Part shown: one piece after another, positions 4,689 to 41,500 of the stretch
How the letters are laid out: each line of letters starts with the position of its first letter
Position numbering within the stretch: the first letter of the stretch is position 1
Virus record (IMG/VR): IMGVR_UViG_3300035698_007508
Location: 62,755-126,754 of that record
Source: a virus
Direction: 5' to 3' (one strand)
DNA: 64,000 nt
Made by a program: the position numbers and the translations under genes
The notes under the pieces: generated by a model
What the model was told of the DNA's origin: nothing
Databases searched by the model: none
The model's input: only the letters and a program-made list of their open reading frames with translations

Positions 4689-6256
4689 TGTCGATGGAGC
4701 AATATGCATACGCGGTCGTAAAAGGCTACGTGAAAGTTGGTGGTAATATCCATCCGGTGTCGTCTTTTCAACTATCGCTGACACATAATGGGATACCATC
4801 ACTACGTCTGACCATTGATCCGGTACACACCGGGGTGGGTAACGTGGTGTCAAGCCTGGACGGCGACGCTGCACCAGCTGTGATCTCGCAGTTCATCAGT
4901 AAGTTCGATGCACTCAACGCGCTGACCACGAAGAAGACCGGGCGCGAAGCCACCTTTACGTTTAGCATGACGAGCAAGGACGACAACCAGGAACTGAAGT
5001 TGGAAGACTGGCTACTTGTGGCTGTAGGATACGCCGGTATCAGCGCGTCGGGTGCGTTACAAATGAACCTGGATATCCAGCACCCGGTGCGTAAGTTGGC
5101 CGAGGGTAACATTCATCTGATAGGTAGCCATGTTGACCAGAAGTGGGGGACGGACGTCTTGGCTAACGCTCCTAATGTACTGGCCGGTATCGTAATTGCG
5201 TTGCGTGAGTATGCGAGTATGGAACCGACGAATCCAGCACCGCTGTTTTTCGATGAGCTGCGAGATCGTACACTGGGCCTTATCGACGCGTTGGAGACAC
5301 ATTTGAAATGGGAGGACGGCCCGGGCTGGCCAAACATGCCGTTTGATATACTGCAGGCCTCTATACCGCACACGCTACAGGCTTACGTGGCGAACATCCA
5401 GGGCCGCGTACCGTGGGGCTGGATGATGCAGGACGTACTGTCCGACTGGTACGCGTCGACACGGTGTACGTATTGGAAGGATAGTTTGACATTAACACCG
5501 TATACGCCGTGGGAGAAACCGCAAATCACCATAACGGATGCGGATGTAAGTGACTTCTCGATACCAGCGGTAGACCCACGTCCGATCGCCGGCGTTATCA
5601 ACCTGTACGACGGTACACTGCTGACAGGCTATACCGCGCTGGCGTGGCGTGACGCCATATCCAAGATCTTCAGCGATGGGCAGTCCTACATCGAACCGGA
5701 CCTGCCCGGCACCGTTGACCATCTACGGCTACCGGAGTGGGTACACGGACTTGTCGGCATAAATCATAGCGTCGGGGCTGGTACTTCAGCGTTCAGCGGA
5801 CAAAATGGGATGAATATGCCACTGAACTCGCCTGACGCGCTCGGTGGACACGGTCCTGCTGATCCTGTCAGTATCGAGTTCTTGACCGAAATCCGGACTG
5901 CGCTTGAGTATTTCTGTAAGCAGACGTTCTGCCTTGGCTTTAAGCAGATGACTCAAGTATCTTTGCGGTGTCGATTGATGTTGAACGCGGCGGGCGGCGT
6001 GGATGGCCATATCGCACCCGGGTACGTGTGTGAGTTTAAGTCAGATCCCAAGGCCGCAACAGAGGCAGGCTTGAAGTCCGGTGGTGGCGGTGGTACACTA
6101 TTGAAGTTCTTTGTGACTAATGTGTCGCACGAGGTTGACTGTGTTAACCATACCGCCGTGACAAATGTGAGTGGACGTTATTTGCATCGGGATGCCGGGC
6201 CAGACCTGGTGGCGATCAAGGGCGGGATAGCGCCGAATTACCTGTATTCAGCATAG
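4688..6256 (+). CDS. Putative baseplate hub / tail protein
   Basis: 522 aa, beta-rich. Position between tape measure and wedge genes and a C-terminal '...FFVTNVSHEV..' motif typical of hub (Mu gpP/gpD-like) proteins. Assignment is positional. Confidence 0.4.
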   Translation: MSMEQYAYAVVKGYVKVGGNIHPVSSFQLSLTHNGIPSLRLTIDPVHTGVGNVVSSLDGDAAPAVISQFISKFDALNALTTKKTGREATFTFSMTSKDDNQELKLEDWLLVAVGYAGISASGALQMNLDIQHPVRKLAEGNIHLIGSHVDQKWGTDVLANAPNVLAGIVIALREYASMEPTNPAPLFFDELRDRTLGLIDALETHLKWEDGPGWPNMPFDILQASIPHTLQAYVANIQGRVPWGWMMQDVLSDWYASTRCTYWKDSLTLTPYTPWEKPQITITDADVSDFSIPAVDPRPIAGVINLYDGTLLTGYTALAWRDAISKIFSDGQSYIEPDLPGTVDHLRLPEWVHGLVGINHSVGAGTSAFSGQNGMNMPLNSPDALGGHGPADPVSIEFLTEIRTALEYFCKQTFCLGFKQMTQVSLRCRLMLNAAGGVDGHIAPGYVCEFKSDPKAATEAGLKSGGGGGTLLKFFVTNVSHEVDCVNHTAVTNVSGRYLHRDAGPDLVAIKGGIAPNYLYSA

Positions 6257-6261
6257 GAGCA

Positions 6262-6966
6262 ATGATGAACTACCCAGAGTATGACAGCTGGCAGGCGGAC
6301 CCCACCCCCGAGAACCTCGGTGCGGTCATGCGCGCAGTTGATCCCGTGCTCGTCAGCGAGGTCCAGCGTTATGCTGGGCCCAAAGACATTTTACACGTCA
6401 AGGCTAAAGGCCTGGCGATCAAGGCCATCCGGTCTTACGACGCGACCAAGGGCGCCAACCTCCGGTCATGGGTCACGACCCAGTTGCAGCCATTGTCCCG
6501 CTACGGCCAGCAGCTGCAGCCTGTGCGCGTGCCGGAAGCAGTACGGCGTCAGGCTGCGGAAGCGCACACCCAGTCAGAGCGCTTGCACGACGACCTGGGC
6601 CGTATGCCTACCGATACGGAGCTGGCGGACCACATGGGCCTGTCGGTCGCCAAGATCCAGAAGCTACGCAGCCGGGTGCGCGCAACCATGTCTGAATCGC
6701 AGATGACCGCGCCGAAGGGCGGCGTACCGGGCGCCATGCCGGCAACTCAGTTCCCATCCGGAGCCGACTATGCGTTCGAGGCTGTGTACCAGGACTTGGG
6801 GCCGCGTGAGAAGGTCATTGTCGACTGGAAGACAGGCTCCCACGGTAAAGAGCAGTTGAGCAACCAAGAGATCGCACAGCGGCTGGGCGTTTCACCCGCC
6901 CTGATTACGCAGATCACCGGCCGACTGGTGGCGCAAATTCAGGAGGTAGCGAGCCATGGCGTTTAG
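6262..6966 (+). CDS. RNA polymerase sigma factor, sigma70 family (FliA/SigB-like)
   Basis: Region 2 (KAIRSYDATKGANLRSWV), region 3 (LGRMPTDTELADHMGLSVAKI), region 4 HTH (LGPREKVI...LSNQEIAQRLGVSPALITQI). GGAG RBS. Confidence 0.85.
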   Translation: MMNYPEYDSWQADPTPENLGAVMRAVDPVLVSEVQRYAGPKDILHVKAKGLAIKAIRSYDATKGANLRSWVTTQLQPLSRYGQQLQPVRVPEAVRRQAAEAHTQSERLHDDLGRMPTDTELADHMGLSVAKIQKLRSRVRATMSESQMTAPKGGVPGAMPATQFPSGADYAFEAVYQDLGPREKVIVDWKTGSHGKEQLSNQEIAQRLGVSPALITQITGRLVAQIQEVASHGV

Positions 6967-7348
6967 CGAAGCTGTTGGATTTGTAAAGGGCTACTTGGAG
7001 AAACACGAGGAGCAGTTGCGTACTGGTACGCGTCTGGAGTGGGCGATGAACGCTGACGTCGCGGACATCGATACCCAGTTCTCCAGTACGGCGGAGAACG
7101 GGGAGTGGGCCGGGATGTATGCGCAATCCCGGCCAGACGTGAACAAGCTTATCGGTGTGCGTACCAAGATTGCATGGTTGGCCGGAGCACGCCGTGATAT
7201 GCGTACCCAGTTCGCGTGCGGCAGGCTCTGTCGGTTACGCACACAGCAGGACCACGATCGCATAGCCCTGTCCCAGTACACCTGGGCCGCTAAAGGGCTG
7301 CAACGCTTATTGGGTATTGTCAACATCGAGCGGAGCCAGAAAATATGA
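6956..7348 (+). CDS. Hypothetical protein
   Basis: 130-aa ORF overlapping both neighbours in operon fashion. Confidence 0.6.
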   Translation: MAFSEAVGFVKGYLEKHEEQLRTGTRLEWAMNADVADIDTQFSSTAENGEWAGMYAQSRPDVNKLIGVRTKIAWLAGARRDMRTQFACGRLCRLRTQQDHDRIALSQYTWAAKGLQRLLGIVNIERSQKI

Positions 7349-7839
7349 TGAGGGCTTACACAGCAGATTACGCAGATCGTCAGATCGACCTGGAGTTTAT
7401 GCAGTCGATCTTACGGCCCACCGGTACCACGGCGCTGGACCTGTCGTTTACGGCCCAGGACGCTCGGGCTGTCACCGGTATGCAGAAATTGGCGCAACGG
7501 TACACCATCTTACTGCTCACGCAGCTTACGGACGTGCAATTCGCCACGGATCAGGGAACTACGTTTTGGCAGGATATGCTACGTGGTGCGGCTCAGAACA
7601 GCGGGCAGGTTGCGATGGCGTTCAACTTCGCCAGTATTGACGCCGTGACGCAGATGCAGGTTGAGGATGGCGACGACACGTTCGGGCCCATCCCGGACGA
7701 TGAACGGATTCAGACAGCAACGCTATTAGATTTCGATGTTAATGTGGTTACCGCGACGTTGTACCTACGCGTATTGTTGCGTAGCCGCACGGGTGACGCG
7801 TACACATACGTACTGCCTACCACGGTAGCGAGGAGATAA
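7345..7839 (+). CDS. Baseplate wedge protein, gp25/GPW-like
   Basis: 164 aa with 'VTGMQKLAQRYTILLLTQL..V.F...GT.F' pattern, immediately upstream of baseplate J. Confidence 0.6.
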   Translation: MMRAYTADYADRQIDLEFMQSILRPTGTTALDLSFTAQDARAVTGMQKLAQRYTILLLTQLTDVQFATDQGTTFWQDMLRGAAQNSGQVAMAFNFASIDAVTQMQVEDGDDTFGPIPDDERIQTATLLDFDVNVVTATLYLRVLLRSRTGDAYTYVLPTTVARR

Positions 7840-7841
7840 TT

Positions 7842-9497
7842 ATGACTACAACACTTAACAATGTGACCCAAGCCACGTTTGAGCAGGCCGAGGCCACTGT
7901 GATCGCACTTATGCGTGAGGCATACCCGGCCTTGGACTTACGCCGTGGCACCGTCCTACGTGAGTTGCTGGTACGTCCGGCCAGCGAATTCTACGCATTG
8001 GAGGATGACCGTTATAACCATCTGCAGTTGACACGTTCGTTGGCGGAGATTGCGGCCAACCCCGGTGAGGCCACTTCGGACGACGTAAACCACGTACTGG
8101 CCAATTTCAATATGACCATGCGGGTGGGCTCCACCGCACATGGTACGCTGCTGGTCAGGGTCCAGTACGACCGGGGTTACTACATACCTGCTACGTTCCT
8201 GGTCGAAGTATCAGGCGGTATCCAGTACAAGGTGGAGCAGGCGTACAACGTCAGTTCGGATACCAGTGTGGCCGCGGGCCATATTCAGCTGCAGGGGCCC
8301 ACGACCGACCAGTCTTACTACTTCCTACTGCCTGTCGTGGCTGTTGCGGTAGGCGCGACTGCTAGCATTACGGCCGGTACCGCGGTGGATGCGGTCACGG
8401 CCTTTCACGGTTTCATCGCTGCTGAGGCATATACTGACTTTACGGGCGGCACCGATCCAGAGACCGTGAACCAGCTGATCACGCGTATGCCGGCCGCCAT
8501 TTCCAACCGAAGCTTGGATAGCCGTAATGCGATCGAGGCTATCTTGCGCAGTCCGGAAGGCGGCGGATTCGACGACACGTTGCAGGAACTGTCTGTACAG
8601 GGTTATGGTGATCCAGGCCAGCTGCGTGATAAACACAACGCGCAAGGCGTGGCTATGGGCGGTAAGGCCGATATCTATGTCCGGACGTTCCGGCAGCCCG
8701 CGACGGTTGTACTGGAGAAGACAGGTACGCGTATCGCGTCAAATACGTACCAGTTCACGCTCGGCCGTGACGAGGCGCCCGGGTTCTATGCTGTACGCAT
8801 GGTGACTGATGCCGGAGTAGCTGCGTCGCCGTTTCTGGATTTCCAGACGTTGCCGGCGGTGGGCTCTTACGCGCTTCTCGACACCCGTGGCAGCTCTGGC
8901 CTGTCTGCCACCATTCATGATATCGACGCGACCAACTCGATCGTAGAGACGGCCGGCACTGTCTTCCAAACCAGTACCATTACTGTGAGTCACGTCGCTA
9001 CCGGCACCGAGGATATGCATGACTTCCGAGTCGAGCTCTACGTAGCGCCGGAACTGGCTGCGATTCAGGACTACGTGGATCTTGATACCGTACGCAGTGT
9101 GAAGGCCGACCATCTAGTCCGGTGCCCGTTTATCTGTCTGGTAGGTGTGCGCGCTACCGTGACAGCTGCACCAGGCGCTGCGTTAGACCTCACAGCCATG
9201 CGGACAGCGGTTGCCGACTACATCAACAGTCGTAGCTTCGTAAACGAGTTGACCGAGAGTGAGATCCTAGGCGTGCTACACACGTTCCAGATTGCCCGAG
9301 TGGATACCAGCGACGATACCCAGCGGGGTTTCGAGCTGCAAGGCGTCATCCGTGATGCCACGGGTACGGTACACACGCTGGGCGGCCACACATTGGATAT
9401 CGAAGCTTATGCCGATGCTCAGAACCTCATCTTACCCGCGACTTGTGTATTCGCCGCACACGCGGAAGACATCATCATCAACGTGAGTAGCACATGA
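7842..9497 (+). CDS. Baseplate J-like protein
   Basis: 'LDLRRGTVLRELLVRP', 'FTGGTDPETVNQLITR...ISNRSL' motifs typical of J/gp47-like wedge proteins. AGGAG RBS. Confidence 0.8.
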   Translation: MTTTLNNVTQATFEQAEATVIALMREAYPALDLRRGTVLRELLVRPASEFYALEDDRYNHLQLTRSLAEIAANPGEATSDDVNHVLANFNMTMRVGSTAHGTLLVRVQYDRGYYIPATFLVEVSGGIQYKVEQAYNVSSDTSVAAGHIQLQGPTTDQSYYFLLPVVAVAVGATASITAGTAVDAVTAFHGFIAAEAYTDFTGGTDPETVNQLITRMPAAISNRSLDSRNAIEAILRSPEGGGFDDTLQELSVQGYGDPGQLRDKHNAQGVAMGGKADIYVRTFRQPATVVLEKTGTRIASNTYQFTLGRDEAPGFYAVRMVTDAGVAASPFLDFQTLPAVGSYALLDTRGSSGLSATIHDIDATNSIVETAGTVFQTSTITVSHVATGTEDMHDFRVELYVAPELAAIQDYVDLDTVRSVKADHLVRCPFICLVGVRATVTAAPGAALDLTAMRTAVADYINSRSFVNELTESEILGVLHTFQIARVDTSDDTQRGFELQGVIRDATGTVHTLGGHTLDIEAYADAQNLILPATCVFAAHAEDIIINVSST

Positions 9498-11143
9498 ACC
9501 AAACACCGTCATTGCCCATAGCAGACCTGGCCCCAGCCGGCGACAAAGCGTTCGACTGGTTGGGTAAACTGTGGACATCTATCTTCGACGACAGCGACCT
9601 GATCCGTAACTGGACGACGGCGCAGGCCCTGCTATCGACACAGCTGTATCTCAACTTCCTGGAGACACTCCAGCTGCCCGACCGTACCAAATCGCCTGTG
9701 TTCCACCGGGACCGCTGGCGTATGCTGACGATCAAACAGTCCGAGCAGAACACCGGACCCGCTGTGGCTCTACGCCTGGGTAGCACGTACACGCCCGTGG
9801 TAGGCCCACAGGTCAGCGCGCCGTTCACGCCCGGGACTACGCCGCAGATCGGCGGCCACGCCGCTATTACAGGCCTCACGGCCTACCCGCTGGATACAGA
9901 TATCACACAAGTTTCTACGGTCATTGTCGACGATATCGTGACACCGACCAAGGTACTGGTCAGCGGCGTGGACTTCCGTATCGAAAATGGTACGATCCTG
10001 TTCTACAACTACAATGACCCGTTCACGCTGGGATTTCCATCCCGTGCGATCCACACTGCCGCAGGTGATGACGTGGAGATCGCTTTGTGGGCCGGTGACG
10101 CGCTCGTAGACCGCGACTACGTGTACAAGCACCTTGGGTACGTCCTGGGCCTGCGGGATGTGTCCAGCGAGTTCTACAGCACGTATCTGAATGCACTGTG
10201 GGACGTGTATAATAACGGCGCCAGTATCGCATTGTTCCGCAGCGGTGTGGCGGCGTTACTCGATGAGCCCTACATTCAGGAGCAGTGCGAGATAGTGCAG
10301 CAGGTGCTGACCAGTCCCCGCCGCCAGGTCATCACGGACAAACACGTATATAAAATTCCGCAATCTGCGACTTTAAGGGCCCAAATAGTCCGCGGCGCCG
10401 TACTACATACCGGTGAATTGCTGACCGAAACACTACACATTTGGGACAATTTGGATCCAACCCGACTGTCGGCCGACGCCCAGGACGCGGCGCAGCTCCG
10501 GGCAGATGTACCGGCCTTCTTCCTACCCTCTGGCTTCTTCCGTGCCGAGCTCAAGCACGGCCTGGGTGTGACCTGGGAGCTCACACCACTCACGTATAGT
10601 GGTCAGGACACTAATGGCAATCCGAAGCTGCGATTCACTGTTTACGGAGCAGATTACGACATCGAGGCGTTTTGGTCCGACTTCGATGCGTACTGCGAAA
10701 CACATAACATATCAGGTCAGACTTGCTTTACGGATGAGCTGCATGGTACATTGACTCCGGTAGTTGGGGCAGAATGGGGAACGGTATCCCCGTTCGAGTA
10801 CTTCCTGTCCAATTACTTGAAAGCGAATCTGCTGATTGTGGCGGTCGATTCGGATAAGCTGAGTGCACAGGGTCGTCAGACACTGCATCTGCTGGGTAAC
10901 CTGCAGAACGGGATACCGGCACACACTTGCTTTTTCGTGGTGGACCATCAGAGCGTCGGACCAGACCCTTACGACCTGGCTGAGCAGACAGAAGATAGTG
11001 TGCTGCCGATACTGGCAATGCCGCTGTACGAAATGGCCGGCACAGGAGTGTACGTTAAGACTAACCTGCGGTACGGTGATGCGAGACCACGCATCGCCTG
11101 GGTACCAAAATGTCGGAGAGAAACGGATGAAGCGAATACATGA
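9494..11143 (+). CDS. Baseplate wedge/tail protein
   Basis: 549 aa following J, ending with an '...IPAHT' motif typical of J-partner (gpI/gp7-like) proteins. Confidence 0.5.
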   Translation: MNQTPSLPIADLAPAGDKAFDWLGKLWTSIFDDSDLIRNWTTAQALLSTQLYLNFLETLQLPDRTKSPVFHRDRWRMLTIKQSEQNTGPAVALRLGSTYTPVVGPQVSAPFTPGTTPQIGGHAAITGLTAYPLDTDITQVSTVIVDDIVTPTKVLVSGVDFRIENGTILFYNYNDPFTLGFPSRAIHTAAGDDVEIALWAGDALVDRDYVYKHLGYVLGLRDVSSEFYSTYLNALWDVYNNGASIALFRSGVAALLDEPYIQEQCEIVQQVLTSPRRQVITDKHVYKIPQSATLRAQIVRGAVLHTGELLTETLHIWDNLDPTRLSADAQDAAQLRADVPAFFLPSGFFRAELKHGLGVTWELTPLTYSGQDTNGNPKLRFTVYGADYDIEAFWSDFDAYCETHNISGQTCFTDELHGTLTPVVGAEWGTVSPFEYFLSNYLKANLLIVAVDSDKLSAQGRQTLHLLGNLQNGIPAHTCFFVVDHQSVGPDPYDLAEQTEDSVLPILAMPLYEMAGTGVYVKTNLRYGDARPRIAWVPKCRRETDEANT

Positions 11144-34689: not shown

Positions 34690-36156
34690 ATGACACGTAG
34701 CACGCAAGATCCACCGGGCATCCCTCAGCGAGGCGAAACAGGCGACCCGACTACAGGGTTAAAACCTGGCCTGGTGGACTTCGTGCTTCAGCATCATCTG
34801 ACCCAGCGTAACCCTACGCGACCTCACTACGACTTACGACTCGGTACCCCCGACACCGGCCTGTTCTCATGGGCGGTGCCGGGGGCCCGGCTTCCCGAGG
34901 AGCGTGAGAAGGTGCTGGCGCCGCAGACAGATCTACACGATTACGCCTATGGTAACTACCAGGGCAACATCGCCAGCGGGTACGGCGCCGGCCAGGTACG
35001 GTTACACGAGCGCGACCAGGCGGAGATCACTAAAGTCACGCCCAAGACGATCAGTTTCACGCTGGCCAATACCCGTAATCCCGGGCGATACTCGCTGATT
35101 CATATCGGCACCGGCAAGCGTGGCCGCGACTGGCTGTTGATCAAGCGGCCAGACGTACCAGGCGGCCCGGTAAAGATGATGCCTATCGATGCCGGTAGCA
35201 CGGCCGAAGCTATAGAGCAAGTGAAGGAGGGTACGGTGAGTAAAGCGAGTAAGAAAGACGTGTGCCCTAAGTGCGGGAAGACACTCGGCGGGTGTGCCAA
35301 GTTTGCTGTCACTGACGGCGAGAAGTTCTTCCACCCATGGTGCTTGAAGAAGAAGGCCCGGATGCAGAAAGAGTCGCAGGCGAACACACCGCCATGGCTT
35401 GATGATTTCACCAAACGTTTGTGGATGCGTGAAAATGCAGGACGTACAGGCTACGACCCGGTCAAGCGCGTATGGGGTTCCTACAAGGATATGAACAAGG
35501 GCAAGGCTTTACGCGCCGCGTACGGCCCAGGCGTGGTAGCGCCGGCAGGGCAGACGTTCACGCAGCAGCAGCTGGACGCGCTGGTCCGTAAAAGCGTGCT
35601 CAAGCATTGGCAAGACACACAACGCGTGTATCCCGGTGTCGCTACCAAATCACCGCACGCACAGCAATTGATGGCCGATCTCGTGTACGCAGGTGCTGGC
35701 ATTGACCCGAAGACAGGCAAGGCCGCGTACCCTAAACTGTGGGAGGCGATCCAGGCACGTGATGGGGCGGGTGCCGCGGGCCAGTACCATGTGAATTTCA
35801 CCCCGGAGGGCGGGACCAAAACGCCCAACGTCCGACGTAACGCCATGAATCTCAAGGATTACGTGACGCCCATGACCAACGGCTGGAATGCGGCTACGCA
35901 GCAGCTGGAAAAGGGCGGCGCAGACCACCTGACGCTGAACAAGCTTTTGACAGCCGCCGGTAAACTGACAGATAAGCACCCGAGCCCGGAGCAGGCCGAG
36001 GCTGGTAACTACCAGAAGGGTCACGTCAGTATGCATGGGTTGGATATCTCGATTGAGAATCCACGAGGTAGTACGCGCAAGGGCGTGAGCGCTGACGGTA
36101 CCGAATGGTCCACGCGTATGGTCGGAGCACATTACGGATACATAATTAAAGGATGA
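34690..36156 (+). CDS. Polyvalent protein, 5' part: LigD-type 3'-phosphoesterase, Zn ribbon, lysozyme-like domain, N-half of InPase-like domain
   Basis: 'FVLQHH...HYDLRL...SWAVP...GYGAGQV' (LigD PE); CPKC..HPWC; 'LWMRENAG..YKD..AYGP...ADLVY..RRN'; 'ISIENPRGSTRKG...W...HYGYI'. Confidence 0.8.
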   Translation: MTRSTQDPPGIPQRGETGDPTTGLKPGLVDFVLQHHLTQRNPTRPHYDLRLGTPDTGLFSWAVPGARLPEEREKVLAPQTDLHDYAYGNYQGNIASGYGAGQVRLHERDQAEITKVTPKTISFTLANTRNPGRYSLIHIGTGKRGRDWLLIKRPDVPGGPVKMMPIDAGSTAEAIEQVKEGTVSKASKKDVCPKCGKTLGGCAKFAVTDGEKFFHPWCLKKKARMQKESQANTPPWLDDFTKRLWMRENAGRTGYDPVKRVWGSYKDMNKGKALRAAYGPGVVAPAGQTFTQQQLDALVRKSVLKHWQDTQRVYPGVATKSPHAQQLMADLVYAGAGIDPKTGKAAYPKLWEAIQARDGAGAAGQYHVNFTPEGGTKTPNVRRNAMNLKDYVTPMTNGWNAATQQLEKGGADHLTLNKLLTAAGKLTDKHPSPEQAEAGNYQKGHVSMHGLDISIENPRGSTRKGVSADGTEWSTRMVGAHYGYIIKG

Positions 36157-36497
36157 AGATAAAGCTAACATGTGTAGATTGTGGGGCCGCACGGGAGTTT
36201 TACCCTAGCGAGTTAAGCGGTATAAGCCGCGCACCGTATCCCGAGGTCTGGTCGCCGGTCCTACGCCGACGGGTACGTGAGCGCGACAACTATACTTGCC
36301 AGCTGTGCGGTACCGCCTATTTAGGCGGGCGTAAGTTATCTGTACACCATATCGATTATAACAAAAACAACTGCGCGGATGCTAACTTGATAACATTGTG
36401 CCTACCGTGCCATACTAAAACGAATTTCAATAGGGAAGAATGGACAATATATATGCAAAGACTACTACAATCGGAGGCGTATCATGCTGTCGCGTAG
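36153..36497 (+). CDS. HNH endonuclease inserted into the InPase-like domain
   Basis: 'RERDNYTCQLCG...LSVHHIDYNKNNC..NLITLCLPCHTKTN'; AT-richer than flanks; overlaps both flanking ORFs. Confidence 0.9.
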   Translation: MKIKLTCVDCGAAREFYPSELSGISRAPYPEVWSPVLRRRVRERDNYTCQLCGTAYLGGRKLSVHHIDYNKNNCADANLITLCLPCHTKTNFNREEWTIYMQRLLQSEAYHAVA

Positions 36498-38223
36498 CCC
36501 GATTGGTAAAGATGGAGATCACGTGGACGTGTTCATCGGCCCATACCCGGCTTGCACGATGGTTTTTATTGTCGATCAGCAGAACAAGGACGGCACTTTT
36601 GATGAACATAAGTGCATGCTTGGATTCAGGGACGAGGCAGAAGCCCGCGCTGGCTACCTCGCCAACTACGAACCGGGGTGGACAGGCTGTGGACCCGTGA
36701 CAGCCCTATCCATGGGCGAGTTCAAGGAGTGGCTGGACAGCGGTAACACGGGTAAGCCGTGTGCTAAGCAGTTCAAGAAGCAGGCTGACAGCGAGCTAAA
36801 CCTACGTCATATCCTGACGCTAGTCAAGCAGGCCGCAGGCATCACAGGCTGGCACGGAATAGATTTAGATGGGACTTTGGCAACATACGACAGCTGGAAG
36901 GGCGATGACTATATCGGGCGGCCGATCAAACTGATGGCTGACCGGGTCAAACGGTGGCTGGCCGACGGCCAAGCAGTGAAGATCATGACCACGCGGGGCG
37001 GCAACGGCCAACAGGCGATCGATGCAGTACAGGATTGGACTTACGCCCACTTCGGGGTCCGGCTGCCCGTCACGGACACCAAGGACAAGGACATGATCGA
37101 TCTGTACGACGACCGGGTGCACCGGGTCCAGAAGAACACGGGCGTCAAGCAGGCTAGTAACAAGGCCTTCCAGACGGCGCTCGACGCGTCGGACATACCT
37201 GGTGATATCTACTTCTACACCGATGGAAAAGAGCGGTGTACCGCGTGCTTCGGTGACTGGCACGAGCGCGAAGATTGGGATGCCGCAGCTAAGCTGGCCA
37301 AGAAACACTTCTCCAACTGGGAAGAGCCTGACGATTCGGAGATAGGGCGCCCCGACTGGGTTACCAAGTCATACAGCAGCAAGAACATGGCGAAGGACGC
37401 CGGTATCCGCCGGGTGATCAAACGCGCCGCCATAGAGCTCGACATCGAGATCGGTGACACACTGCTGTTTGGCAGGTACAAGAACAGCCCCAAGGTGGTC
37501 GAGGACATCGGCACAGACGCCAAGGGCCAGCCTACCGTCAACGGGATGAAGCTCCTGGCCTGCCGGATCGAGAAGAAGATGGCAAAGAAGGCCGAGTACG
37601 TGATCAATGATTGCCCGACGTGCGGCGACACTACTAAAGACCGTCGCAAATTGGATCCAGGCGAGAAAGTGGTACATACTGCGGATGTTTGTTATGCGTG
37701 TAAGACCAAGCAGGCGGAGAGCAAGCAACGGCTGTTCAAGAAGGACGAGCCTTATCCCGCTGTCGAGAACTGTGAGACCTGTGAGCGCTTCGGCCCGACT
37801 AAGGACGCCGCTATGGTCAAGAACGTACCACTCAAGGTTGTCACGGCCGACGAACAAGTGCGAACAAAGCTCGTGGCTGAGCTGGCTGACACGCCGGATA
37901 AGCGTACAGTTGGCCTGTCCAAGCGCGCCACGCTACCGCCAGGTACCGGTATGCTGTTCGATATCCCAGGCCCGTTCTGGATGAAGGACGTTAAGTTCGC
38001 GCTCGACATCGTCTATATGGACAAGCAAGGTACCGTCACTGAGATCGGACACATGCCGGCGCCGCCTCGTTACGTCCCGGACAGACTGATGCCGCGGTAC
38101 CAGTCTAAATCTGCGTCCACCGCCATCGCTTTGGAAATGCCAGCCGGGTGGGCGAATAGCGTGAAGCTACAGCCCGGCGATCGACTAGAGATTGACAAAC
38201 ATGACGATACTGCAGTACATTAA
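36484..38223 (+). CDS. Polyvalent protein, 3' part: C-half of InPase-like domain, HAD phosphatase, small domains, DUF192
   Basis: 'GKDGDHVDVFIGP...VFIVDQ...FDEHKCMLGF' ; 'GIDLDGTLA...IMTTR...LYDDR' (HAD); 'ELADTPDKRTVGLS...GMLF..FWMKDVKFALDIVY...ALEMPAG' (DUF192). Own GGAGG RBS. Confidence 0.85.
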   Translation: MLSRSPIGKDGDHVDVFIGPYPACTMVFIVDQQNKDGTFDEHKCMLGFRDEAEARAGYLANYEPGWTGCGPVTALSMGEFKEWLDSGNTGKPCAKQFKKQADSELNLRHILTLVKQAAGITGWHGIDLDGTLATYDSWKGDDYIGRPIKLMADRVKRWLADGQAVKIMTTRGGNGQQAIDAVQDWTYAHFGVRLPVTDTKDKDMIDLYDDRVHRVQKNTGVKQASNKAFQTALDASDIPGDIYFYTDGKERCTACFGDWHEREDWDAAAKLAKKHFSNWEEPDDSEIGRPDWVTKSYSSKNMAKDAGIRRVIKRAAIELDIEIGDTLLFGRYKNSPKVVEDIGTDAKGQPTVNGMKLLACRIEKKMAKKAEYVINDCPTCGDTTKDRRKLDPGEKVVHTADVCYACKTKQAESKQRLFKKDEPYPAVENCETCERFGPTKDAAMVKNVPLKVVTADEQVRTKLVAELADTPDKRTVGLSKRATLPPGTGMLFDIPGPFWMKDVKFALDIVYMDKQGTVTEIGHMPAPPRYVPDRLMPRYQSKSASTAIALEMPAGWANSVKLQPGDRLEIDKHDDTAVH

Positions 38224-38599
38224 GGACCTCAGACACAGATGGCGCCGAGACAACAGCGTGCGTATTCGCATGGCCAGTTACCGGCGCGAACGTAGCGGAA
38301 TAGTGACAATATGTCACTCTGAGTACCAGTGGCGCAAGGTCCGGAACGAGCACGTACGCGACGAGCCTGTGTGCCAGGCATGTAGCACGGACAAGAAGTT
38401 ACAGGTACACCATATAGAGCCGTGGCACGTATGCGTTGCCAAGCGTTTCTTACGCAGCAATCTGATTACGTTGTGCCAGTCCTGCCACTTCCGGTTCGCG
38501 CATCTGTTGAACTGGAAGAATTGGAATGTGCAGATCAGATCGCTTTGCGCAATGATGCGTATACAGCTCGATATTGCAAAGGAGACCCGACATGACTAA
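38201..38599 (+). CDS. HNH endonuclease
   Basis: 'WRKVR...CQACS...LQVHHIEP...NLITLCQSCH'. First ATG at 38201. Confidence 0.85.
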   Translation: MTILQYIKDLRHRWRRDNSVRIRMASYRRERSGIVTICHSEYQWRKVRNEHVRDEPVCQACSTDKKLQVHHIEPWHVCVAKRFLRSNLITLCQSCHFRFAHLLNWKNWNVQIRSLCAMMRIQLDIAKETRHD

Positions 38600-41500
38600 G
38601 TGGATCATGACGATTTGTGCAGCCCTGGCATTGACGACCGGCGCACTAGCGGCGGATGTCAGTACGCGCAGTAACCCCAGCACCATACTCATTCAGCTCG
38701 GCGTGGACGGTGTTACGGAGACAGGCGGCACGAACGGCGCCAATCGACTGGTCAAGACCGACTCGGACGGCCTGCTGGACATATCGCTCGTACCCAGTAC
38801 CGCCACGACTGCGCCCAATCTCACTGGCGCTATCTACATCGACGCAGGTATGGGCGCCGATACGGGTACCGGCGCTATCACCGCCCCGTACAAGACTTTC
38901 GCTGCCGCGGTGGCGGCCGCTACCGACGATCCCATGGTGTACGTATTCGGTGCGGGCTCGTACAGTCCGCCAGCCGACATCACGACCGTAGCCAAGTCGC
39001 ACATGACACTGGTAGCGCTCGATCCCGATCCTACGGCCACTGCCATCACAGGCAAGATCCGCTTCAATACTGGCGCGGCCGCCGAGATCCACATCTATGG
39101 TATGCAGGTATCGACGGTGCGCCGGGTTGACGCGAACGACATCACAGTCAACTTGTACAATCGCGCTGCGCTCACGACCCTGGAGACGGGTATCGTGTCC
39201 CCCGCGTTCGACATGATCGTGAACCGGGATCCGACCGTCAGTACCGTACCCACCGGATCAGACGTCGACGTATTTGAGCTGCACCGCGCTGCGGACCTGG
39301 GGTTCGCACCTACTACGGTCGGCCGCAAGCTACTGACGAATGACTACTACACGATCGCAGCGGCTCTGGAAGCCTTCCTCACCCAAGAGTACATGCCGGC
39401 CGGTACGAACGGGGGTCAGCTCGCATACTGGGACGGTACCAACTGGATGTCCGTAGCGAAAGGCGCGCTCGACGAGGTTTTGATTGGCGGGGACGTGCCA
39501 CAATTCTTCAAGCTGGTGATCAGCGGCGTCGTGACAGGTGAGTACGATAACGTTGTATTGATCCCTGACGCCGTGACCACCACCAACATCCAGGATGGCG
39601 CTGTCACGGCCGCCAAGACGGCCCCAGGCATCGATGATGACGACACCGACGACCTGACGCTCACGGCCAACTTCGGTGGTGATGTCACCAACACTTATGA
39701 TGACGTCGTGGTGATCCGTATCCACCAGCTACCTGTCGTGGTGCCAACCGCCGGGCAGGACAGTATGGCCTTGACGTACATAGCTGCATCCAATCACCTG
39801 GGCTGGGCGGCGTACATGCTCACGTCCATCTATGATGTGGACACCAACGGCATTATAGACATCGCCGAGACCATGGCCGGAATCACCAACTACTACACCA
39901 AGGCCGAGGCAGACGTTGCATTCGTCGATACCAACGAACTGGTCGTAGCACTGGCCGACTACTACATGACCGGACAGGTCGCTACGATCTTCATCGATAC
40001 CAATGAGCTCGCACTGGCGCTGGCTGACTACTACACCCAGGTGCAGATCGACAGCATGTTCTGGACGACAGGCGAGGTCTCAACACTCTTTATCGACACC
40101 AACGAGCTGGCGACGGCTCTGGCGTCGTATTACACGACGGGGCAGGTACAGACAATCTTTGTCGATGCTACCGAGCTGGCCGCGGCACTGGCTGACTACT
40201 ACACGACCGGACAGGTACACAACGTCTTCGCTGACCTGACACAGCTGGCGCTCAAGTATGATAAGACAGGCGGCACGGTCACGGGCGATATGACCGTGCT
40301 GGGAACCATCACGGGGCCTACCGGTGTGTTTGACAGGGTGACACTGGACGGTATGACACTGACCAAGCACGCGTCCGGGTACTTGCTGCGCGACGGTAAT
40401 CAGGTGTGGGATGAAGCCTCATTTGATCCGGGCGCCGCCGGTTTCTGGATTCAGAGCACAACCAACATCGCATCAACCGCCATCGGTTGGTACACGATCG
40501 CTACCGACTTCGAGTCCGGTTGGGTCACGCCGTTCAAGATCGCAATCACCAACGACTCGTGGTCCAGCGCAGAAGTCCTGTATTTCGACATCCTGTGGCA
40601 CGGTGACCAGCCGGATATGCCTATCGCCCAGATCAAGTATTACGGGTGGGAGCAGACTGGTACGCAGCAACTGATCCATGACGACGGTATCAAGATCGTA
40701 CGGAACGGCACCGACAGCTATCTGGCCATCCGGTTCCTCACCATTGACAACGCGATGACCATCGACACGTGGGGCCCGCAGACTACGATACCTGCACTGG
40801 CCCTTACAGTAGGCGAGCCGGCAGGCACTGAGTCCATTTCCGTAACGTACAGCGACTTCAACGATGCCTGGCGCTGGAACGGTAAGCTGTACATGTATGC
40901 GGAAGACTGGACGAACCTGATCTACGACGCGTTCCAGACTGACGGCTCTACCGTAATGGCGGCCGATGGTTCCTTCGGTGGGTACGACCTGACTGATGTG
41001 GACCAGCTGTACGTCAACGGGCTGCGCGGTACGAACGGTACACTGCACTTCAATTTCGAGACGCATACGGCCGGGTCAGGGCTGTGGACTGACCTGGATG
41101 CGGACTTGCTTGATGGTCTCCATGCCAGCTCCTTCTACCAGGCGGGCGTACCGTTCGTCGCTGATCTGCTGTTGGGTACCAACGATATCCGACAAGTGGC
41201 ACGTATCTATGATTGGACAGCCACACAAGGTATCGATATCGAGAATCACGCCAGCCTGAGTACTACGCTGTGGACCAACTGGAACGCGGACCTGCTGGAT
41301 GGTATCGACAGCACGGCGTTTATGCGTCACAGCCAGCTCACCGAGGGGTATGTACGCCTCAACACCAATGACTTGCGTGGCATCAAGCGTGTCTACCTGG
41401 ACAGCATCGCCGAAGGTATCGATATCGAGAATCATGCCAGCCTGAGTACTACGCTGTGGACCGACTGGAATGCGGACCTGCTCGACGGTATCGACAGCAC

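Follow-up and report, generated by a model that had tools for sequence, protein, structure and literature searches.

Two halves of an InPase domain on either side of a small HNH gene in a phage polyvalent-protein locus

What becomes of a phage gene when an endonuclease gene stands in the middle of one of its conserved enzyme domains? The question is raised by a locus in a 64,000-nucleotide stretch of DNA (hereafter the window; bases 62755-126754 of the 126,754-base IMG/VR virus record IMGVR_UViG_3300035698_007508, which is estimated to be about 60% complete), whose source we treat as an uncultured jumbo phage. Here the N-terminal and C-terminal halves of a family I inorganic pyrophosphatase-like (InPase) domain lie in two separate open reading frames (ORFs), termed A and B, with a small ORF for an HNH endonuclease between them. 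ORFs A and B correspond to two pieces of a gene for a polyvalent protein, that is, for one of the chains of enzyme modules that have been proposed to be packed into the virion (Iyer et al. 2017, PMC5512222).

We favour the following answer, at a probability of about 0.8. As comparison with relatives shows, a free-standing HNH homing-endonuclease gene entered the DNA that encodes the loop between the HYGYI and DGDHVDVF strands of the InPase module, and the host gene would now be expressed as three tightly coupled cistrons with no splicing at the level of either RNA or protein. The two InPase fragments would most likely re-associate non-covalently and so rebuild the active site, and the HNH gene itself would be a reduced one. 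The elements on which the argument turns are the following.

34690-36156, + strand: ORF A (488 amino acids), first piece of the polyvalent virion protein gene, with a LigD-type 3'-phosphoesterase (amino acids 43-137), a Zn-ribbon, an unnamed middle domain and the InPase N-half
35989-36144, + strand: InPase N-half (A residues 434-485), ending in the HYGYI strand
36145-36156, + strand: tail IKG and TGA stop of ORF A, without counterpart in the KRTESEA linker of intact relatives
36153-36497, + strand: free-standing HNH endonuclease ORF (114 amino acids)
36297-36422, + strand: HNH catalytic core (amino acids 49-90: CxxC, HH, N, CxxCH)
36473-36477, + strand: GGAGG Shine-Dalgarno sequence of ORF B, within the 3' end of the HNH ORF
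36484-38223, + strand: ORF B (579 amino acids), second piece of the gene, with the InPase C-half, a HAD-like domain, a variable middle and DUF192
36505-36735, + strand: InPase C-half (B residues 8-84), opening with the DGDHVDVF metal-binding motif
38201-38599, + strand: second free-standing HNH ORF (about 132 amino acids from the ATG at 38201, 135 from a TTG at 38192)

The initial annotation of the window described an InPase-like motif that is divided between two ORFs, HYGYI followed by IKG and a stop at 36156 closing the first and DGDHVDVF lying near the start of the second, and both are present: ORF A ends in ...AHYGYIIKG with its TGA at 36154-36156, and ORF B begins with MLSRSPIGKDGDHVDVF, i.e. 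MLSRSPIGK followed by DGDHVDVF. It also had the 114-residue HNH ORF filling the gap between the halves, the HNH start codon overlapping the upstream stop as ATGA, and the 3' end of the HNH ORF supplying a GGAGG ribosome binding site and the ATG of the second half. All of this is borne out, since the HNH ORF spans 36153-36497 and the insert measures 345 nucleotides against intact homologues, the ATGA stands at 36153-36156, and the GGAGG and the ATG of ORF B (36484) lie within the end of the HNH ORF, which ORF B overlaps by 14 nucleotides. Both halves match the Pfam InPase family (PF18823) far above its cut-off of 26.8 bits, ORF A over profile positions 2-52 of 135 (65.7 bits) and ORF B over positions 57-134 (100.6 bits). 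Similarly, the PHROG profiles for DarB-like and minor-head polyvalent proteins continue from A into B, losing 0-4 positions. Only three residues on A (IKG) and two to nine on B are non-homologous at the junction, and the KRTES[ED]A linker of the nearest intact relatives has been almost wholly replaced on both sides of the insert (36142-36156, IKG; 36484-36510, MLSRSPIGK). The G+C content falls to 0.44-0.52 over the insert as compared to about 0.58-0.60 in the flanks. A and B share one reading frame, and about ten stop codons interrupt that frame across the insert; reading through it can thus be dismissed, and the host gene truly is in two pieces.

Was the gene split from the outset, or did it come to be split? 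A search for longer proteins recovered P0001 (971 amino acids, N-terminally incomplete), to which A and B both align in one chain, with 70% identity over A residues 105-485 and 52% over B residues 2-579, and in which the junction reads HYGYI-KRTESEA-DGDHVDVF. A tree built from 207 InPase C-halves places the window copy in a clade with the uninterrupted P0001 and P0017 (Shimodaira-Hasegawa-like approximate likelihood ratio support 99). When both halves were placed by tblastn, they were contiguous in all 84 further InPase loci, which came from 4 isolate phages and 80 IMG/VR contigs, and a gap, of 345 nucleotides, appeared in the window only. With the intact InPase domain as tblastn query, 471 isolate-phage records were matched, the best 60 of which all carry the domain in a single piece. 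The search for uninterrupted homologues suggested in the initial annotation thus finds them in P0001, P0017 and all 84 loci, and the insertion is therefore derived; by comparison with its relatives, the split is the younger state of the gene. A scan for A-type pieces with HYGYI at their end gave three proteins only, all of them intact.

The way in which the pieces are likely to be translated follows from their signals. The GGAGG stands six bases before the ATG of ORF B. In the window there are 18 instances of GGAGG-N4-9-ATG/GTG on the + strand, 14 of which open ORFs of at least 80 amino acids, and one on the - strand, and this count and strand bias mark the motif as a real gene-start signal of this phage rather than a chance string; it also serves the annotation of start codons in this phage. 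No Shine-Dalgarno sequence at working distance was found for either HNH gene. Ribosomes would end ORF A at the UGA that overlaps the HNH AUG and, because of this overlap, translation of the HNH ORF is probably weak and dependent on reinitiation, while ORF B would have an initiation site of its own in the strong GGAGG-N6-AUG that lies within the end of the HNH ORF. We infer that translation of the three cistrons is coupled. A promoter-like match within the HNH ORF (36387-36416) proved no better than chance.

The inserted gene itself is recognisably an HNH gene. It matches PF01844 with 23.2 bits (cut-off 21.4) and several PHROG HNH families down to E = 1e-13, and in an alignment of 16 relatives with the two HNH ORFs of the window it retains the invariant residues D45, C49, C52, H65, H66, N78 and C83 as well as the near-invariant C86 and H87. 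It is also sporadic, being absent from P0001, P0017 and 84 of the 84 other loci. Its relatives in IMG/VR, 421 in number, are mostly 170-280 amino acids long and carry one to three NUMOD3 motifs or, as in a 278-residue enzyme (L030), zinc-ribbon repeats, followed by a C-terminal HNH domain, a layout that identifies a homing-endonuclease architecture. No such NUMOD3 or zinc-ribbon DNA-binding module is found in the 114 residues of the window protein. Residues 22-102 match residues 187-268 of the L030 enzyme at 52%, and the first 17 residues (36153-36203; MKIK..C..CG..EFY) resemble its first 15 (L030:3440-3484) with 10 identities, at E = 0.021 in a single comparison. This faintly hints at an internally deleted endonuclease gene that has lost some 170 codons. 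More generally, the HNH looks like a reduced derivative that kept the catalytic core and lost its DNA-binding modules, and with these gone it may no longer home efficiently, so that its homing activity is presumably low or lost. Among the best 80 of the 421 relatives none adjoins an InPase half, and the flanks of five tightly wedged HNH-relative loci do not hold two halves of one Pfam family. One further locus with an HNH gene at a similar offset (L045) proved to belong to an unrelated AT-rich phage.

The second HNH ORF (38201-38599) is 35% identical to the first, and the two, which are the only HNH genes in the whole record, bracket piece B. It overlaps the 3' end of B and the next gene, a 1543-residue tail-fibre-like ORF whose AGGAG and ATG (38592) it carries. 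Because B ends where P0001 ends, this second HNH gene lies between genes and splits none.

Where in the protein does the break fall? We used an AlphaFold model of an intact InPase domain (L117; predicted local distance difference test score (pLDDT) 86, predicted template modelling score 0.78). Searched against the PDB, it matches only family I inorganic pyrophosphatases, and the InPase profile pairs the YG.I...DGD..D stretch with the corresponding one of the Mycobacterium pyrophosphatase. The HYGYI strand occupies residues 56-60 of the model, a loop residues 61-71 and the next strand, IDVFI, residues 72-76; the loop block 61-70 has the lowest internal confidence, with a mean pLDDT of 63 as compared to at least 90 in the flanks. 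As modelled, then, the break falls in the most flexible loop of the domain. A is left with five strands, and B with three, together with the helices and the metal-binding motif DxDxxD. An InPase domain is also present at residues 635-762 of the phage portal protein gp19 (765 amino acids; PDB 9b41 chain L; E = 1e-46 to the InPase profile), and this structure can serve as an experimental template on which to map the split site.

The same loop has been broken elsewhere. By the initial annotation, homologues without the HNH gene that are already split at this position would speak against its reading. One such HNH-free homologue (L188; IMGVR_UViG_3300014491_000108, 4870-10968) does carry an independent InPase split at this very loop, but it belongs to another lineage and the nearest relatives of the window copy are intact, so that the reading stands. 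Its three ORFs are the following.

4870-5739: first ORF, ending in ...HDYGYIRTA; InPase profile positions 2-54
5736 or 5754 to 5999: middle ORF of about 81-87 amino acids, zinc-finger-like; matches phrog_14788 (unknown function), not HNH
6001-10968: second ORF, starting with MDDTIKEHGRRAPIGNDDMHIDV; InPase profile positions 57-134, HAD-like domain, topoisomerase IB and more

As in the window, the halves of L188 share one frame. A string R-x-PIG-x-D at the start of piece B is common to the window and L188 and absent from intact alleles; it could have been brought in with the inserts or have arisen by convergence. The protein product of the L188 second ORF (P0191) is one of four among the best 150 representatives matching B that begin with a methionine 7-17 residues before D.(D/E)H.DV. 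In the other three (P0128, P0181 and P0257, on contigs of 5-31 kb) the methionine stands only 7-10 residues before D.(D/E)H.DVF, so that they probably represent further split alleles; IMG/VR yielded no genomic context for P0181 or P0128. In the tree of InPase C-halves two or more origins are required for the split alleles, with the window copy nested among intact ones, from which it follows that the loop was broken more than once and by different inserts. Thus, the loop is independently split in L188 and, as the sequences indicate, probably in three more lineages. One may go further and see in the HYGYI-to-DGDH loop a recurrent natural break point of phage InPase, split by different genes, with the re-associating fragments acting as a split enzyme and, at the same time, as a docking pair by which two separately made multi-enzyme proteins are co-packed into the virion, but this we put forward only tentatively, as a possibility we ourselves doubt.

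Do the two halves still come together as one domain? The alternative that survives best is that the insertion has killed the InPase module, and that A and B persist as independent multi-enzyme proteins whose halves do not reassemble. We consider this unlikely, yet some points speak for it. The other modules (phosphoesterase, HAD-like, DUF192) would be self-sufficient, a head protease may cut such proteins apart anyway, and polyvalent proteins are modular, with InPase being dispensable, as is seen from its absence in a syntenic 211-kb phage (L089/L102). Moreover, the active-site residues are now shared out between two chains, and the insertion left only tiny tails. The following weighs against the reading that we prefer: a recent insertion would leave the halves just as highly conserved, the tails (three residues on A, two to nine on B) are very short and in this unlike the activity-essential tails of the NrdA pieces of phage Aeh1, and an HNH protein without a recognisable DNA-binding module is of doubtful status as an active homing endonuclease.

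Several observations stand against a dead module. The halves keep 38 of the 41 columns that are conserved at 90% or more in InPase, one of the three differences lying in the new tail, and the acidic metal-binding residues of DGDHVD and FDE are retained. Against the intact relative P0001 the two halves are the best-conserved segments of the whole protein (78.0% identity for the N-half and 74.7% for the C-half, as compared to 70.1, 71.1, 70.4, 43.5 and 69.8% for the other parts). The retained columns and the high identity argue against decay since the split, a time in which the HNH gene seems to have lost its N-terminal modules, and the other lineages that are split at this loop also keep both halves. 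Taken together, conservation and the position of the break in a flexible loop favour reassembly of the halves after translation. Non-covalent reassembly of the InPase barrel, as we conceive it from the sequence and the model, could also hold A and B together for packaging.

Could the two pieces instead be joined before or after translation? Phage introns often bear HNH genes, and A and B share a frame, as would be the case if the insert were a self-splicing group I or II intron with an HNH ORF whose removal restores a single InPase frame. We regard this as very improbable. The initial annotation saw no intron and no room for a ribozyme, and the searches agree: over 35000-39500 Rfam returned no intron family at E values up to 10, the predicted folding of 36120-36520 is no better than that of shuffled sequences (z = +1.09), and the 345-nucleotide insert is coding from end to end, leaving no space for a ribozyme core of some 200 nucleotides. 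In addition, B has its own strong Shine-Dalgarno sequence and ATG, and A its own stop. Still less credible is a split intein with protein trans-splicing, for although there are known fractured genes in which split-intein halves flank a free-standing endonuclease (Dassa et al. 2009, PMC2677866), the three non-homologous residues on A and at most nine on B are far too few for intein halves and exclude this type, and hardly more can be said for an assembly artefact, as a chimera would not be expected to form such precisely overlapping start and stop signals. No direct or inverted repeats flank the insert, and there is neither a target-site duplication nor terminal inverted repeats, so that a transposon is dismissed as well. 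With no Rfam intron, a closed host frame across the insert and no extra sequence of intein size, the HNH gene stands as an ORF in its own right. That the pieces of the host gene are not spliced is thus our reading of the sequence and of these negative searches.

The surroundings of the locus fit a virion protein. It sits in the late region of the phage, in a run of genes on the same strand that ends in the 1543-residue ORF resembling a tail fibre, which matched no PHROG family, and packaging of the polyvalent protein into the virion is suggested by this gene context, just upstream of the tail-fibre-like ORF. A search with the DNA of the region gave no match among isolate phages, and no close relatives of ORF A were found in IMG/VR. 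Scans of metagenomes and IMG/VR for the locus of P0001 gave distant or syntenic loci only. A syntenic jumbo-phage relative exists (L089:7043-14578, Ga0315273_10000005, 211.6 kb; L102 is the same), in which the two upstream genes are conserved. Its polyvalent gene has a phosphoesterase and a ligase-like body without InPase, DUF192 forms a separate gene of 131 amino acids, and a different ORF of 272 amino acids with an HNH-like ...NIDHIVP... motif stands just upstream of the polyvalent gene. By this comparison the locus has the look of a hot spot where modules are exchanged and endonuclease genes settle.

With this case, genes put in pieces by endonucleases are no longer confined to essential replication enzymes but include cargo proteins, which phages presumably inject. 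InPase, with some 140 residues and a pyrophosphatase activity, would offer a small and easily assayed domain for studying how far a beta-barrel enzyme tolerates being cut in two. Breaks in this loop in one or more other lineages, and probably in five lineages in all, point to a naturally permissive split site that could suit protein-fragment complementation, and mobile genes may land there by preference. Genome annotation should treat ORF A and ORF B as the two halves of a single domain rather than as unrelated proteins.

How does this case compare with genes in pieces already known? The parallel drawn in the initial annotation with the nrdA gene of phage Aeh1, split by mobE, is apt (Crona et al. 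2011, PMC3045599; reviewed in PMC2988022). In both an HNH-family gene stands in a conserved region that bears the active site, the gene is contiguous in relatives, and two separately translated pieces result, in the window putatively, as in Aeh1, without RNA or protein splicing; the pieces in the window have a stop (TGA 36154) and a start (GGAGG-N6-ATG 36473-36486) of their own. The split NrdA pieces of Aeh1 form an active enzyme for which the insertion-made tails are essential (PMC3045599), whereas here the tails comprise 3 and 2 to 9 residues, the HNH is trimmed to its catalytic core, and the split affects an InPase module within a polyvalent virion protein rather than an essential metabolic enzyme. 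Endonuclease-associated splits are also found in the gp39/mobA/gp60 region of T4 and in gene 43 (43A/43B) of Aeromonas phage 25, in both of which the two polypeptides must reassemble (PMC2988022). Different from these, the window has no translational bypass element and no untranslated spacer, and all three cistrons overlap. The PF18823 domains of phage polyvalent proteins and portal fusions (PMC5512222; PDB 9b41) likewise stand in a multi-domain phage context, and both halves of the window copy score above the cut-off of that family, but elsewhere the domain is in one piece (84 of 84 loci and the best 60 isolate-phage records) and here in two genes. The hidden HNH of mycobacteriophage methylase genes such as that of ShiLan (PMC11855218) also lies in another frame inside its host gene, on an insert that is a multiple of three; however, the ShiLan host frame is open through the insert, whereas here it meets about ten stops. 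Finally, fractured genes with split inteins (PMC2677866) have an endonuclease gene between two gene pieces as well, but there are no intein halves here, and the pieces reach the junction within a few residues. Since phage genes put in pieces by endonuclease insertion are known from these other cases, the present one is a new example and not a new principle. What it adds is an HNH without NUMOD3 or zinc-ribbon modules, a second HNH gene at the 3' end of B, and a loop that has been split independently in L188.

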